Shown: positions 1 to 35,726 of the stretch, one piece after another
How positions within the stretch are numbered: the stretch's first letter is position 1
How the letters are laid out: each line of letters begins with the position of its first letter
Origin: Tolypothrix carrinoi HA7290-LM1
GTDB lineage: Bacteria; Cyanobacteriota; Cyanobacteriia; Cyanobacteriales; Nostocaceae
Assembly (NCBI GenBank): GCA_019358935.1
Contig: JAHHIK010000088.1
Coordinates: forward strand, 1-35,726
Length of the DNA stretch: 35,726 bases
Reading direction: 5' to 3'
The notes under the pieces: generated by a model
What the model saw: only the letters and a program-made list of their open reading frames with translations
What the model was told of the DNA's origin: nothing
Databases searched by the model: none
Translations under genes and position numbers: made by a program

Positions 1-125
1 CCTAGCCAACCTCGAAACCGAGGAAGCGTAAGCACTAGGAAAGAACGCTTTCACTTACACCGTGGAGTGAGGTATGGACAAATTATCTAGCTAGTGGTAG
101 TTCTGTCCACACATTTAGAAGCGGT
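1..125 (+). mobile_element. End of a multicopy mobile element (structured non-coding end; possibly IS110/IS1111 family), copy 1
   Basis: Exact reverse complement of 35601-35725. It replaces the 3' end of the 87..887 gene. Hairpins at 10-14/19-23, 1-5/35-39, 51-56/65-70 and 75-87/96-109. The family assignment is inference only; no transposase is in the window. Confidence 0.75.
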
Positions 126-887
126 TACGGCTGGATTTGCGGTTCTATTGAGGATTTTTTCGGCAATCAATATGTCTAATCCTTGGGATTTGCCTGATAT
201 TTGTAATTGCTTGAGAGTAGCAGTTTGTGGCTGGACGAAACCGCTAAAGGTTAATCCTTCTTTGCTAGCTGTGTAATTGTAGACATAAAAAGATTCGCCT
301 TCAACCGTGCGTTGATCTGCTTTCAGGTCTAAATTGGGGGTCAAGCCAATTTGAGCTAAAATTTCTTTATCTGATAATTGACCGCGAGCAAGAATTTTTC
401 TGGCGTCACTGGGAATTTGCAGAAATAGGGAGGAGGACATGCCAATTAAAAAATAATCATCTGACTTGCCAAAATTATCGTAGGAAGTTACAGCGTATTC
501 TTTTGAGTCTGGTTTGTAAATTGAAACTTGTTTACCATCGGAAATTACTAGAGTAGGAGGTTTGGGTTGTTCTCCTTGTCGTGTAAAAGTAATTTCAGAG
601 CGAAATTTGCCATCAGACTGAGCGATAGTTTTGACTTTAGCGTAAGTAGTGAAATCAATGCCTTGATTTTTAGCACTAACTAAAATCTGAGACTCAGTTT
701 GATAGCGATCGCTTTGCAAAAAACCAGTAATAGTTTTAGCTAGTAAAGATATATCTACTGCTGTAGCTTGACTCAATTGTGTAGCAGAAGTTACTTGCAG
801 TTTGTTAGAGGCTTGTATTGCATTGGCTTTTGGCATCACCAAGGCAACAATACTCAAAGCCGTAATAGTCATGAGAATAGGTTTCAT
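87..887 (-). CDS. Secreted LolA-like/DUF2092-type periplasmic protein, C-terminus disrupted by the terminal element
   Basis: Signal-peptide-like N-terminus (MKPILM...ANA) and a LolA-like segment (VISDGKQVSIYKPDSKEY). The last codons (SKCVDRTTTS*) come from the 1-125 repeat. ATG at 887 preferred over TTG at 911. Confidence 0.65.
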   Translation of the reverse strand: MKPILMTITALSIVALVMPKANAIQASNKLQVTSATQLSQATAVDISLLAKTITGFLQSDRYQTESQILVSAKNQGIDFTTYAKVKTIAQSDGKFRSEITFTRQGEQPKPPTLVISDGKQVSIYKPDSKEYAVTSYDNFGKSDDYFLIGMSSSLFLQIPSDARKILARGQLSDKEILAQIGLTPNLDLKADQRTVEGESFYVYNYTASKEGLTFSGFVQPQTATLKQLQISGKSQGLDILIAEKILNRTANPAVTASKCVDRTTTS

Positions 888-5023: not shown

Positions 5024-5124
5024 GATATCAAATCCTTATCCGATGAATGATTAATTCGTTATTGGCTATCAACTATCATCAACTAAATGCGACCATTCGC
5101 ATAACTGTTATTTAGCCGCCAAAC

Positions 5125-5299
5125 TGGGGAATGGGGAATGGGGCATGGGGCATGGGGCATGGAAAGAATCGTATTACAACGCGCATCACGAAAAGCCGCT
5201 TCTTTAATTCGAGCGTGCCCATTGCCCATTGCCCATTGCCCATTGCCCATTGCCCATTGCCCAATTACCAATGCCCAATGCCCCATTCCCCATTCCCCC
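5125..5299. repeat. STRR-type heptamer arrays in inverted orientation (TGGGGAA/TGGGGCA and CCCATTG/CCCCATT) in the argC-ribBA divergent intergenic region
   Basis: Tandem 7-mers at 5125-5162 and 5216-5299 with a unique ~53-bp core. Confidence 0.9.
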
Positions 5300-5366
5300 T
5301 TAAAGGTTGTACAATCGAAAAGTAGGTTTTGTTAAAAAAATTTACGTTGGTCGTTGGAAATACTCT

Positions 5367-10884: not shown

Positions 10885-13800
10885 ATGACTCATTCCTTTC
10901 TAGAACGCTTGCACAGTCCAGACCGTCCGGTTCTCGTCTTCGATGGGGCGATGGGAACGAATTTGCAAACGCAAAACCTCACCGCTGAGGATTTCGGTGG
11001 TCCTCAGTACGAAGGTTGCAACGAATATCTCGTCCACACCAAACCCGAAGCTGTCGCTAAGGTTCACCGCGATTTTCTCAGCGCTGGTGCAGATGTCATC
11101 GAAACTGACACTTTTGGTAGTGCGTCAATTGTACTTGCTGAATACGACTTGGCAGACCAAGCATACTACCTAACTAAAACCGCCGCAGAATTAGCAAAGC
11201 GTGTCGCTGCTGAATTTTCCACCCCAGAAAAACCCCGCTTTGTCGCCGGTTCGATGGGACCGACAACGAAGTTACCTACCTTAGGACATATTGACTTTGA
11301 CACGATGAAAGCGTCTTTTGCTGAACAAGCAGAAGGACTTTGGGATGGTGGTGTCGATTTGTTTATCGTCGAAACTTGTCAAGATGTGCTGCAAATCAAA
11401 GCCGCGCTGAATGCAATTGAAGAAGTCTTTGTGAAAAAAGGTGATCGCCGTCCGGTGATGGTTTCTGTGACAATGGAAACTATGGGGACAATGTTGGTCG
11501 GGACGGAAATTAACGCCGTTGTCACCATTTTAGAACCGTATAAAATTGACATTCTCGGTCTGAACTGCGCTACCGGTCCAGACTTGATGAAACCACACAT
11601 CAAATATCTCTCGGAACATTCGCCTTTTATCGTTTCCTGTATTCCCAACGCGGGTTTACCGGAAAATGTCGGCGGTCAAGCACACTACCGACTGACACCG
11701 ATGGAATTACGGATGTCATTGATGCACTTTGTTGAAGATTTGGGTGTCCAAGTGATTGGGGGTTGCTGTGGGACGCGTCCAGAACACATTCAACAAATGG
11801 CAGAAATTGCCAAAGACCTGAAGCCAAAAGTTAGACATCCGGAACTTGAACCAGCAGCAGCGTCAATTTACAGCACGCAACCCTACGACCAAGATAACTC
11901 GTTCTTGATTGTCGGCGAACGTCTCAACGCCAGCGGTTCCAAAAAATGCCGCGATTTGCTCAACGCGGAAGATTGGGATGGACTCGTTTCAATGGCAAGG
12001 GCACAGGTCAAAGAAGGGGCACACATCCTCGATGTCAACGTCGATTACGTGGGACGTAATGGCGAACGAGACATGCACGAATTGGTTTCGCGCATTGTCA
12101 ATAATGTTACGCTGCCTTTGATGCTCGACTCCACCGAATGGGAAAAGATGGAGGCAGGTTTAAAAGTTGCCGGCGGTAAGTGTTTGCTCAATTCCACCAA
12201 CTACGAAGACGGTGAACCGCGCTTTTTGAAGGTGTTGGAGTTGGCGAAAAAGTATGGTGCTGGTGTAGTCATTGGCACTATCGATGAAGATGGAATGGCG
12301 AGAACTGCTGAGAAAAAATTCCAAATTGCTCAACGTGCTTATCGTCAAGCTGTAGAATTCGGCATTCCGGCAACAGAGATATTCTTTGATACGCTTGCTC
12401 TCCCGATTTCCACGGGGATTGAAGAAGACCGGGAAAACGGAAAAGCGACAATAGAAGCGATTCGGCGGATTCGTCAAGAATTGCCGGGAAGTCATGTAAT
12501 TTTGGGTGTATCGAATATTTCCTTCGGTTTAAACCCAGCAGCGCGGGTGGTGCTGAACTCGATGTTTTTGCACGAAGCGATCGCAGCGGGAATGGATGCG
12601 GCGATCGTTAGTCCTAACAAGATTTTACCACTTTCTAAGATTGAAGAACGCCATCAAGAAGTTTGCCTTCAGTTGATTAACGATCAGCGGAGGTTTGAGG
12701 GTGATGTCTGCGTTTATGATCCGTTGGGAGAATTGACAACATTATTTGAAGGAGTGACAACGAAACGCGATCGCTCTTTGGATGAAAGTCTCCCCATCGA
12801 AGAACGTTTGAAGCGTCACATCATCGACGGTGAACGCATCGGTCTAGAGGAACATCTGCAAAAAGCTTTAGAACAATATCCCCCCTTACAGATTATAAAC
12901 GTCTTTTTGCTCGATGGGATGAAAGTTGTCGGTGAATTGTTCGGATCCGGGCAAATGCAGCTACCTTTCGTATTACAATCAGCGGAAACTATGAAAGCGG
13001 CGGTTGCTTTTTTAGAACCGTTCATGGAAAAGTCAGAATCAGGCAATAACGCCAAAGGAACGTTTGTTATCGCTACCGTAAAAGGCGATGTTCACGACAT
13101 TGGTAAAAACCTGGTGGATATCATCTTGTCAAACAACGGTTACAAGGTGATTAATTTGGGGATTAAACAGCCGGTGGAAAATATCATTGAAGCATACGAA
13201 AAGCATCAAGCTGATTGTATTGCGATGAGTGGTTTGCTGGTGAAATCCACCGCTTTCATGAAGGAGAATTTGCAGGTTTTCAATGAAAAGGGAATTACTG
13301 TACCGGTGATTTTAGGTGGTGCAGCGTTGACTCCTAAATTTGTCCATGACGATTGCCAAAACACTTACAAAGGTAAAGTCGTTTATGGCAAAGATGCATT
13401 TTCTGACTTGCATTTCATGGATAAATTAATGCCGGCAAAATCCCAAGGACATTGGGATAATTTGCAGGGATTTTTGGGTGAAGCTGAAGACAACTCAGGA
13501 AATGGGCATAAAGAAGTAGCAGAAGAGAAAGCCAAACAAGAAACTGATGAACCTAAGGTAATAGATATTCGTCGTTCGGAAGCGGTGACGGTGGATATTG
13601 AACGTCCGACACCACCTTTTTGGGGTACGCAATTATTGCAACCTGGGGATATTTCTTTGGAGGAGATATTCTCTTATTTAGATTTGCAAGCTTTGATTGC
13701 GGGGCAATGGCAATTCCGCAAGCCAAAGGAACAATCGAAGGAGGAATATCAGGCTTTTTTGAATGAGAAGGTGTATCCGATTTTGGATAGTTGGAAGCGG

Positions 13801-28441: not shown

Positions 28442-29566
28442 ATGATTCCAGAGATTGTGACGATTAAGTTGCGTCAAATGGCTAGTGGTGATGTTTTATC
28501 GCTACAAGTTTACAAGTTTATTGGCGGTAATGCTGGTAAGAAGGTTTACATTCAATCTAATCTGCATGGTGCGGAAATTGCTGGTAATGCTGTTATTCAC
28601 CAGTTGATTTCGTTTTTACAGACGATAAATGATACGGATTTGGCTGGGGAAGTTTGGCTGGTTCCGGTTTGTAATCCGATGGGAACTAATCAGCGATCGC
28701 ATGTTTTTTCTTCTGGTAGATATTGTGTTTATGAAGCGAAGGATTGGAATCGCATTTTTTGGGATTATGAAAAGGAAGCTGATGATTTACTAACTTTTGC
28801 TAAATCTCAACTTAATCTTGATATTGAGGTTGTCAGACAGAATTATCTCAGCAGAATCAAACAGAAGTTTGGAGAACTTTTAGATAAAATTAATTCTCCT
28901 AGTAGTGTACCTTATACTGAGCGGTTTCGCTATAAATTGCAATCTCTTAGTTTGGATGCAGATTATTTGATTGATTTACACAGTGCTTCAAATCAAGGCA
29001 TAAATTATCTTTATTATTTCCGAAATCGAGAAGAAAGTGCTAAATACTTTTTACTGAAAGACGGATTTTTACTTGATAAATATGATGGTGATGCTTTTGA
29101 TGAAGCTTTTATCAAACCTTGGTTAGCGCTGGAAGATTGTTTTCAACAGCTTGGTAGAGAAGTTAAGTTTGATGTGGAAGCTTGGACGCTTGAACTGGGT
29201 ACGGGAATGCAAATGATTCCTGATTCAGTTGCTAAAGGTGTGCGGGGTGTGAAAAATTATTTAATTAAAAAAGGTGTTTTGCTTAACTTAACTGTGGAGG
29301 AAGGCATTTCTCAAGAAATGTGTTTTCGAGCTAGAAGTAATGTGATAAAGTATTATGCTTCCGCAGGGGGAATGATTCAATCAAGGGTAGAATTGGGTAG
29401 TGAAGTCAAAGCTGGAGAACGACTTTATCAAATTCTTAGTTTTAATAAAGAGGCTAAGTTACCTGTTGTCGTTGATGTCTGCTGCGAACAAGATGGATTG
29501 GTTTATGATACTTCTAGCAATCAAGCTGTGAATGAAGGTGAGTTTGTGATGGGAGTTATCAGTTAA
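28442..29566 (+). CDS. Succinylglutamate desuccinylase/aspartoacylase (M14-like) family protein
   Basis: LHGAEIAG, PVCNPMG, DWNR, IDLHS, TLELG. Confidence 0.9.
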   Translation: MIPEIVTIKLRQMASGDVLSLQVYKFIGGNAGKKVYIQSNLHGAEIAGNAVIHQLISFLQTINDTDLAGEVWLVPVCNPMGTNQRSHVFSSGRYCVYEAKDWNRIFWDYEKEADDLLTFAKSQLNLDIEVVRQNYLSRIKQKFGELLDKINSPSSVPYTERFRYKLQSLSLDADYLIDLHSASNQGINYLYYFRNREESAKYFLLKDGFLLDKYDGDAFDEAFIKPWLALEDCFQQLGREVKFDVEAWTLELGTGMQMIPDSVAKGVRGVKNYLIKKGVLLNLTVEEGISQEMCFRARSNVIKYYASAGGMIQSRVELGSEVKAGERLYQILSFNKEAKLPVVVDVCCEQDGLVYDTSSNQAVNEGEFVMGVIS

Positions 29567-29687
29567 ATGGGGAATGGGGAATGGGGAATGGGTAATGGGT
29601 AGGAGTAGACGTAGGGTGTGTTATAGCCGAGAGTACGGCACCCTAAATTATTAATGGTGCGTTAGCCTTCGGCATAACACACCCTAC
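29567..29687. repeat. TGGGGAA STRR array followed by a paired GTAGGGTG REP-like element between convergent genes
   Basis: Heptamers at 29567-29600; gtagggtgtgttat (29611) ... ataacacaccctac (29687). Confidence 0.8.
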
Positions 29688-31903: not shown

Positions 31904-32152
31904 GAGTTAGGAGGAGCGGAGTTAGTTGTTGGTTGATAGTGGATAGTGGTTAGTTGATAGTGGTTAGTTGATAGTTGTTGGTTGATAGTTGTTGGTTGTT
32001 GGTTGTTGTTTGTTGTTTGTTGGTTGGAGCGTTGTTGGTTGACAATTAACCACCATCCACGCTTCCACCATCCACGCTTCCACCATCCACGCTTCCACCA
32101 TCCACCATCTACCAACCACCAACCACCAACCACTATCTACTATCCACCAACC
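31904..32152. repeat. Inverted low-complexity heptamer arrays (GTTGATA/GTTGTTG vs CCACCAA/CCACCAT) with a 15-mer tandem x3
   Basis: G/T-rich arm at 31920-32040 and C/A-rich arm at 32048-32152; ccaccatccacgctt at 32050, 32065 and 32080. Confidence 0.85.
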
Positions 32153-32160
32153 CAACGGGA

Positions 32161-32295
32161 GAGCCAGTTGCTTCAAGTCGGCAGAGCCGACGGCAGATGC
32201 TTCAAGCCGGGAAACCCTTGCGGCAGTCGCTCATGGGGGGAACCCCCAAGACCGCGCTGCCTTACCAACGCACTGCCTCCCCAACGCACTGGCTC
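32161..32295 (+). repeat. Triple-nested SDR-like hairpin elements
   Basis: gagccagttgc..[cggcagatgc..[cggcagtcgc..gcgctgcc]..ccaacgcactgcc]..ccaacgcactggctc. Confidence 0.75.
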
Positions 32296-32334
32296 ACCAC
32301 TATCCACCAACCAGTAACCACCAACACACAAAAA

Positions 32335-33012
32335 ATGTCTTCAAATACAGTCTCTGCGTTCAATATACCTTTAGATGCTCCTCCGTTGCGGGTGTTAATT
32401 GTTGAAGACGATCCGATGATGCAACTCGGATTAGAACAGTCATTAATGGCTCATCCGCAGTTGGAAATTGTCGGACAAGCGGAAGATGGTTATTTGGGTG
32501 TGCAAGCTGCACTGAAACTGAAACCTGATTTGGTGGTGATGGATATTGGTTTACCGCGATTGGATGGAATTGCCGCGACACAGCAAATCAAAGCAGCATT
32601 ACCAGAAACGCATGTAGTAATGCTGACATCTCACAAAACAGAGACAGAAATAATTGCCGCGTTATCTAGCGGTGCTGATGCTTATTGTATCAAAGGGGCG
32701 AGTGTCGAGCGGTTGTTGAATGCGATCGCTGCTGCGGTTGAAGGTGCAGCTTATCTCGATCCGCAAATTGCCAGACAAGTAATTGAAAATCTCAAACCCC
32801 CTACCCCCACAGGTAATACGGCAAATTTATCTGGACGCGAGTTAGAAGTTTTGAAACTGATGGTAGACGGATTAAGCAATCCAGAGATTGCCGAAAAACT
32901 CTATCTCAGTCCCAACACTGTGAAAACTCACGTCCGAGGGATTATGAACAAATTAGCAGTTGACGATCGCGTGCAAGCAGCAGTTGTCGCTCTGCGTTCC
33001 GGGTTGGTGTAA
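32335..33012 (+). CDS. NarL/LuxR-family response regulator
   Basis: VLIVEDD, PDLVVMDIGLPRLDG, YCIK, HTH LSGRELEVL..GLSNPEIAEKLYLSPNTVKTH. ATG at 32335; the upstream ORF extension is repeat DNA. Confidence 0.95.
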   Translation: MSSNTVSAFNIPLDAPPLRVLIVEDDPMMQLGLEQSLMAHPQLEIVGQAEDGYLGVQAALKLKPDLVVMDIGLPRLDGIAATQQIKAALPETHVVMLTSHKTETEIIAALSSGADAYCIKGASVERLLNAIAAAVEGAAYLDPQIARQVIENLKPPTPTGNTANLSGRELEVLKLMVDGLSNPEIAEKLYLSPNTVKTHVRGIMNKLAVDDRVQAAVVALRSGLV

Positions 33013-35087: not shown

Positions 35088-35600
35088 TTATCGTGAGCCT
35101 CTGTGCTTTTCTCCAAGTAAGCGATCGTATTCGTCTTTGACAACTCGGAAACACTCGCACGCACCCGCTTCGAGTCCCTGTAGGTCGAGGATATCGACGT
35201 GACCGCGCGTGTAGCGTATGAGACCGCTATCCTGAAGCTTTTGGGCGGCTTGGGTGACACCGGCGCGGCGCACGCCCAGCATGTCGGAGATGAACTCCTG
35301 CGTCAGCCTCAGTTCGTTCGATTCAACGCGGTCTTGCACTTCCAGCAGCCAGCGTGCCAAGCGTTGTTCCAGACTGTGCAAGCGGTTGCAGGCGGTGGTC
35401 TGGGAGATTTGCGCGATAAAAGCTTGCGTATAAGGCAGCAGCACGTCGCGCAGGTCTTTATTGCGATCGAACTCCTCCAGCAGTGGACGCGCATCCATTT
35501 TGAACGCGCTGCCTGCGACCTGTACTATGTATGTGGTCTGCGTAGTCTCGCTTCCACCCATAAAGGCATTGACGCCGATCACTTCACGCTTGCCGACTAT
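35088..35600 (-). pseudogene. Crp/Fnr-family transcriptional regulator, 5' part cut off by the terminal element
   Basis: GIVGKREVIGVNAFMGG, ACNRLHSLEQRLARWLL, LTQEFISDMLGVRRAGVT (HTH), ACECF; the frame runs into the repeat at ~35601. Confidence 0.88.
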
Positions 35601-35726
35601 ACCGCTTCTAAATGTGTGGACAGAACTACCACTAGCTAGATAATTTGTCCATACCTCACTCCACGGTGTAAGTGAAAGCGTTCTTTCCTAGTGCTTACGC
35701 TTCCTCGGTTTCGAGGTTGGCTAGGA
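35601..35726 (-). mobile_element. End of a multicopy mobile element, copy 2 (inverted relative to copy 1)
   Basis: 35601-35725 is the exact reverse complement of 1-125; it interrupts the Crp gene. Confidence 0.75.

Follow-up and report, generated by a model that had tools for sequence, protein, structure and literature searches.

Termini of a Tolypothrix carrinoi contig as right ends of a non-autonomous IS607-family element with a likely TnpB guide RNA scaffold

Contig JAHHIK010000088.1 of Tolypothrix carrinoi HA7290-LM1, all 35,726 nucleotides of which form the window analysed here (contig C88 of assembly G000), begins and ends with the same sequence: the 125 nt at 1-125 and those at 35601-35725 are perfect inverted copies, with 100% complementarity. 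Which kind of element left these ends, and does the structure predicted in them belong to a guide RNA? A first-pass annotation, made from the sequence of the window, regarded the repeat as the downstream non-coding end of a recently active IS110/IS1111 element encoding a bridge or seek RNA. We consider it highly probable that each terminus is a right end of an IS607-family element that is non-autonomous and has the order left end, Arc-like gene, tnpB and right end, and that the last ~130 nt of this element are likely the omega-RNA scaffold that loads TnpB, the host flank being the predicted guide. This reading combines 16 right and 16 left ends, the gene layout, a GGG target with GG at both junctions, and covarying stems and a pseudoknot, all of which were observed directly.

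Copies of the repeat, their boundaries and the interrupted genes

A BLAST search of the T. carrinoi genome identified 16 right-end copies that are identical over 123-125 nt, in agreement with the proposal of a recently active multicopy element; 15 of these lie at contig ends and one, internal and truncated, lies in contig C54. A second family of contig ends, which matches the left part of the related elements L022 and L023, supplies 16 left ends, and nearly all left and right ends coincide with contig breaks. The contig-end copies of this element and of other repeat families uniformly retain ~120-127 nt and the smallest contig of the assembly is 10,054 nt, suggesting that the assembly collapsed the repeat and lost its interior; the idea that the length of the repeat reflects an assembler overlap at a collapsed repeat fits these remnants. 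A public metagenome assembly contains six further identical right ends, also at contig ends (L038-L043).

All 16 right ends finish in AGAAGCGG and diverge beyond it, which places the boundary of the element at positions 124 and 35602, and base 125/35601 is a host T outside the element. The 125-nt repeat is real, and the element within it is one base shorter than had been assumed. On the basis of the BLAST copies and the comparison of flanks with the empty allele, copy 1 of the right end occupies positions 1-124 (+ strand) and is cut by the contig start, and copy 2 occupies positions 35602-35726 (- strand) and is cut by the contig end; the matching left ends are on contigs C19 and C18, respectively. 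As the first-pass annotation had noticed, the two copies break different genes: (i) the gene broken at 125 encodes a LolA-like protein (125-911, - strand; weak PF03548 match) and is cut near its C-terminus, so that the ORF at 87-911 now stops inside the element, and (ii) the gene broken at 35601 encodes a Crp-family regulator (PF13545), the C-terminal half of which lies at 35088-35601 (- strand). Uninterrupted alleles of both split genes are present in genome G025. In the reading frame at 35088-35686 (- strand) the right end continues in frame for ~28 codons into the C-terminal half of the Crp regulator, which keeps its DNA-binding domain and which read-through from the element might express.

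Several other repeats were observed along the way. At the start of its contig, the 274-nt truncated copy in C54 (C54:1-400, L001) adjoins another repeat family. A further family, with 16 members at contig ends C103_L, C116_R and 14 more, ends in GGGTTA, prefers TA-rich flanks and is another active element. Contig ends C125_L and C70_R carry sequence with a possible resemblance to domains V-VI of group II introns. The window itself contains short tandem heptamer arrays, some as inverted pairs, at 5122-5314, 29565-29599 and 31909-32340; such arrays are typical of heterocyst-forming cyanobacteria.

Gene content and insertion sites of the element

The C54 copy, in which 274 nt of the element are assembled, encodes the C-terminus of a protein with a stop codon that corresponds to positions 29-31 of the window. 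Positions 1-31 (+ strand) accordingly contain the last nine codons (LANLETEEA) and the TAA stop of tnpB, as indicated by the C54 translation, a 72% match to the C-terminus of TnpB in L022 and a 95% match to the protein P0037 over the 59 residues known from T. carrinoi. Since these bases are the 3' end of tnpB, where the gene and the 5' stems of the putative RNA scaffold share sequence, 1-125 is not wholly non-coding; the description of a non-coding end is wrong for 1-31.

A DNA search of 201 genomes of the taxonomic family gave a match in 29. The best relatives, L022 (91%) and L023 (83%), contain a 486-aa ORF that ends at the same place as tnpB of T. carrinoi and, on the opposite strand ~60 bp upstream of it, an ORF of 60-66 aa. 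The order in these full relatives is left end, small ORF, 486-aa TnpB and right end, and the ~270 bp between the left end and tnpB are occupied by the small ORF. The repeat had thus correctly been recognized as a downstream end, with tnpB upstream of it. Two public contigs have the same layout: one (X2 record 1) carries the left-end letters of the T. carrinoi copies and extends from there across the small ORF and into tnpB, the other (X3 record 9) spans tnpB from its start as far as the right end, and both are collinear with L022, the only gaps in the aligned parts being compensating single-base ones. These contigs complete the element and are not independent support, because the underlying runs may be the source of the T. 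carrinoi assembly. The Microcoleus records L088, L095 and L082 contain the closest right ends (92-93% over 274 nt), and same-genus elements (L126) are at ~81%, a pattern in the sequences that hints at horizontal transfer. A plasmid BLAST gave no match. Right-end matches in L005, L006, L008, L012, L013 and L014 have no long TnpB ORF upstream and are possibly gene-less derivatives or stand-alone omega-RNAs. Weak DNA matches in WD40 genes (L017-L021) were dismissed as chance.

The 486-aa protein matches the NCBIfam model guided_TnpB with an E-value of 4e-10 and 39 bits, below the 100-bit cut-off, no Pfam family matched it, and a search of PDB sequences with the TnpB profile returned a marginal Cas-phi3 match only. 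The best structural matches of the TnpB model (pLDDT 69) are Cas12f proteins (E 3e-7, low TM-scores). The assembled tnpB of T. carrinoi comprises the C-terminal part only and the catalytic residues are thus read from relatives: the RuvC residues D283 and E342 are invariant across eight sequences, and of 112 homologues with a length of at least 460 aa, 87, the closest ones included, have all of D283, E342 and D412, the third of which is an inferred position (two have Ala, 23 escaped the patterns). All three acidic residues are kept in P0037, the closest full-length protein. No CxxC motif lies between RuvC-II and RuvC-III in any of 78 ORFs, i.e. the proteins are without a zinc finger. Judged by sequence and predicted fold, the large protein upstream of the right end is TnpB, and at the level of the family it is a predicted RuvC nuclease with three acidic residues.

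How does such an element move? Among 85 distinct loci of the family, a TnpA gene lies upstream in 27, the small ORF in 13, both in none and neither in 45 (within 1.5 kb, single-query tblastn). The family transposase that was tested contains MerR-HTH and Resolvase domains, i.e. it is an IS607 serine recombinase, and family members with the serine transposase have the same terminus as the element in T. carrinoi. All 16 left ends are preceded by GGG (background 0.24 given GG, p ~1e-10), and at the fourth target position A, C and G occur and T never does (0/16). Of 11 right flanks compared with empty alleles in same-genus genomes, nine could be paired (C113 gave no match, C140 a match away from the junction), and in seven of these nine the sites are equal in length with the GG core alone at both junctions; the other two differ by +1 base, an extra G at the left copy of the window, and by -3 bases. 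At the right junction this comparison places the GG core at 123-124 (+ strand). The C19 left flank that belongs to the junction at window position 125 has a G that the empty allele in G025 lacks; use of the alternative GG register, or an indel that arose earlier, would fit this extra G. Terminal inverted repeats are absent and the left and right termini differ, as expected from the first-pass annotation; subterminal similarity between the two ends is weak and equally high in 13 of 300 shuffles. IS607 elements are described as having a (G)GG target without duplication (PMC6188088). In total, the traits observed are (i) a TnpA_S with HTH, at family level only, (ii) the GG core and (G)GG target, and (iii) no terminal inverted repeats. 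No transposase is present in cis in the T. carrinoi copies, for which the relatives and the public contigs give the layout; these copies are non-autonomous IS607-family elements.

These data refute, by gene content, the IS110/IS1111 assignment, in which the downstream non-coding end would be a bridge or seek RNA and to which we now give essentially no weight. The lack of long terminal inverted repeats, a target duplication of at most 2 bp, the structured end and the weak subterminal similarity of the ends would all suit such an element. Yet the adjoining gene encodes TnpB in T. carrinoi and in all full relatives examined, neither a DEDD_Tnp_IS110 nor a Transposase_20 domain was found by Pfam in two TnpBs of the family, the family transposase is a serine recombinase, and the 16 flanks have GGG and a following T in common and no extended fixed target. 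An IS200/IS605 element with a Y1 transposase (IS1341-type) and a TnpB omega-RNA is also very improbable, even though databases name these proteins IS605 OrfB and TnpB alone with Arc is described for IS605 elements (10.64898/2026.09.24.754181): the sole type of transposase found beside this TnpB clade is serine (27/85, in a search not aimed at Y1), and a G-rich target that leaves GG at each junction is characteristic of IS607. A group II intron was likewise rejected on gene content. We also rejected an IStron, given that the ~270 bp with the small ORF inside leave no room for a group I intron and that of the nine paired insertions six are in long reading frames, four in sense and two in antisense orientation.

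For the IS607-family element, the helper for transposition is either one of the IS607 TnpA proteins of T. carrinoi acting in trans or a cognate transposase, the gene for which is on an unassembled contig or lost. The assembled genome has no cognate transposase of the element and five IS607 TnpA genes, which are 38-45% identical to the family TnpA and have different ends. Whichever helper is used, the GG junctions indicate movement by a serine recombinase. The left end of an IS607 element in contig C50 (~12100-12213) shows, by eye, TGT-M-Y-A motifs ~11 bp apart like those in the ends of our element, which makes the C50 element a lead for the helper transposase.

The right end as a likely guide RNA scaffold

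The stems named in the first-pass annotation and its G-U pairs 56-65, 83-100 and 86-97 are all present, and the stems covary among homologues. The folding energy alone hardly picks a strand, as the z-score of the minimum free energy of the window end is -2.7 in sense and -2.0 in antisense; across the family, z-scores of whole ends are weak (median -0.9 sense, -0.7 antisense) and do not separate the strands. Covariation was followed in 58 right ends, i.e. 57 ends of less than 90% identity drawn from 93 plus the window, sequences that are related and not independent. In this set 93.7% of cells are paired, 26 of them with two-sided changes, compared to 85.3% paired in shuffles, none of 500 of which reached as high, and 32-69% with partners slid. 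RNAalifold on the same set recovered the pseudoknot helix alone. Because the upstream part of the set aligns poorly, the 5' stems were analysed in a subclade of 19 sequences (L123, with a long insertion, was dropped), in which the stems named earlier reappeared, 10 of their 19 pairs showing two-sided changes.

From 5' to 3' on the + strand, the predicted structure is as follows. A stem (1-5/35-39), which extends a few bases upstream of the window start, encloses a hairpin (10-14/19-23) and a GUAA-capped hairpin (26-33), the whole covering 1-39 with two-sided changes in 4/7 and 2/5 pairs in the 19 subclade sequences. A hairpin at 52-69 (52-56/65-69) presents the loop ACCGU (59-63) and has two-sided changes in three of four pairs (n=58), with one pair being CG in 34 sequences and GC in 16. 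In each of the 58 right ends the hairpin with loop ACCGY sits 41-70 nt from the end, and RCGG at the terminus (GCGG in the window) is base-paired with this loop in 58/58. In the window this predicted pseudoknot (60-124) consists of C60-G124, C61-G123, G62-C122 and U63-G121, and 100% of its cells are paired (n=58); two of its four pairs are invariant and none shows two-sided changes. The last pair is UG in 32, CG in 24 and UA in two sequences, and U-G works solely on the tnpB strand, which supports the earlier notion of a strand-specific structured RNA of guide type. A terminal stem-loop of variable length (75-109) forms a hairpin of at least 5 bp in 57/58 sequences and is more stable in sense in 46/58; it overlaps a subterminal DNA motif that recurs inverted at the left end and likely represents transposase sites. 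Rfam gave no match for window positions 1-300. RNA runs X15-X20 contain 0.35-0.39 of the sequence words searched, which is not evidence of transcription.

Considering the sequence comparisons together, the right end likely encodes an omega/reRNA scaffold with a pseudoknot that would guide TnpB. The putative scaffold overlaps the 3' end of tnpB, its pseudoknot reaches to the last bases and a variable flank follows. From the literature on IS607 TnpB, the host flanks at 125-144 (+ strand, copy 1) and 35582-35601 (- strand, copy 2), both of assumed length, are the predicted guides. The first flank base is T at 14 of 16 sites in T. carrinoi (background 0.25) and at 57 of 76 homologue sites; this T could pair with the conserved A59 and lengthen the pseudoknot by one base, or could reflect a preference of the transposase.

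Alternatively, the element may be the same, with a dead TnpB in T. carrinoi or an RNA that is not made, and the structure of the right end may be maintained chiefly for its DNA sites, which the transposase would use. The overlap of the terminal stem with a motif also found at the left end would fit this scenario, as would the absence of the tnpB interior from the assembly and the observation that, among 78 near-full ORFs of the family, 9 are broken and the third Asp is missing from some. Against it, U-G pairs possible on a single strand and the two-sided changes observed in stems within coding sequence are constraints of the RNA type, the three acidic residues are kept in the closest full-length proteins, and the public contigs show, over their aligned parts, no gaps but compensating single-base ones. 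We consider this alternative improbable and favor a functional TnpB scaffold.

The divergent small gene, a model for retention and known systems

The small ORF is present in 85 of the 201 genomes of the taxonomic family. Among its best 30 loci, 29 have an ORF opposite to it, and this ORF matches a TnpB profile in 26 of the 29, from several clades. Pfam and a Foldseek search of the model gave nothing for the small protein. The model contains an extended segment and two helices, and the top rows of its structural matches are almost all ribbon-helix-helix proteins, at low scores (Z up to 4.0); the Atlas returned unnamed cyanobacterial clusters only, with ribbon-helix-helix-type families (0.87-0.89) as leads. 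In L022 the region between the small ORF and tnpB contains a promoter-like site, identified as a consensus match only. Arc proteins of IS605 elements, including elements with arc and tnpB, bind and repress the divergent promoter (10.64898/2026.09.24.754181). By analogy, the small protein likely represses the promoter of the element. Elsewhere in T. carrinoi the same small ribbon-helix-helix-like gene lies head-to-head with TnpB-like ORFs of other clades (C105:25815-25976, C85:36092-36205 and C50:6402-6587).

We suggest a model in which (i) an IS607 serine transposase supplied in trans would excise the element and insert it at GG, (ii) the tnpB transcript would read through the right end and be trimmed to scaffold plus guide, (iii) TnpB would cut the empty allele, which has GGG next to the guide match, and spare the filled allele, which has CGG, (iv) repair from a sister chromosome would restore the element, such that retention is favored, and (v) the small putative ribbon-helix-helix protein would repress the shared divergent promoter. 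Retention through TnpB and a right-end RNA has been reported for other IS607 elements. More speculatively, and in our estimation rather unlikely, the unannotated Arc-like gene may have replaced the serine transposase in this cyanobacterial TnpB clade, whose elements would still multiply in bursts, here to 16 copies that are identical, with the help of a distantly related IS607 TnpA of the host (38-45% identity); in the extreme version of this idea, the Arc-like protein together with TnpB would suffice for movement, without TnpA.

A guide scaffold of IS607 TnpB is a known principle, of which this element is a new example. The IS607 IStron of C. botulinum is reported to target TGGG, to end its scaffold in UCGG and to discriminate self from non-self at -3 (10.1101/2023.11.20.567912), and ISXfa1 to have a GGG motif and a required pseudoknot (PMC10711439). 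As described there, both share with our element the GG core at both junctions, a GGG-type target, tnpB upstream of the scaffold, a scaffold that ends in CGG and a pseudoknot from a loop to the 3' end; owing to this CGG, base -3 distinguishes the end of the element itself from a target. In contrast to these systems as described, the T. carrinoi copies lack a transposase and leave no space for a group I intron, their fourth target base is never T (0/16), TnpB is 486 aa long and has no zinc finger, and a single stem-loop separates the pseudoknot hairpin from the end. The Arc-containing IS605 elements (10.64898/2026.09.24.754181) have a small ribbon-helix-helix gene divergent from tnpB with a short intergenic region, comparable to the putative one here, and elements with arc and tnpB and without tnpA are among those tested there. 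The likeness is one of layout and predicted fold, whereas ends and target are of the IS607 type here, the host is a cyanobacterium, a word that is absent from the main text of that paper, and small gene and TnpA never occur together at the 85 loci. Lack of a C4 zinc finger is shared with the TnpB clade RIIIr-4 as reported in PMC10691335, which has His at RuvC-III; our proteins mostly have Asp at the inferred position. IS110/IS1111 elements with bridge or seek RNAs resemble the element in having a structured RNA in the element end and no long terminal repeats, and differ, as they are described, in using an RNA-guided DEDD transposase, whereas here the RNA follows the gene for a RuvC nuclease and mobility is by a serine recombinase. 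In the open-access literature we found no study of this TnpB clade.

The element brings to attention a divergent TnpB clade without a zinc finger that is missed by standard profiles and has the predicted target motif VGGG, together with a natural scaffold that is compact (41 to 70 nt between pseudoknot loop and end) and has defined boundaries. Moreover, a family of 60-aa ribbon-helix-helix-like proteins without Pfam annotation is found beside several TnpB clades in cyanobacteria, which would extend the idea of an Arc repressor to elements with IS607-type ends.
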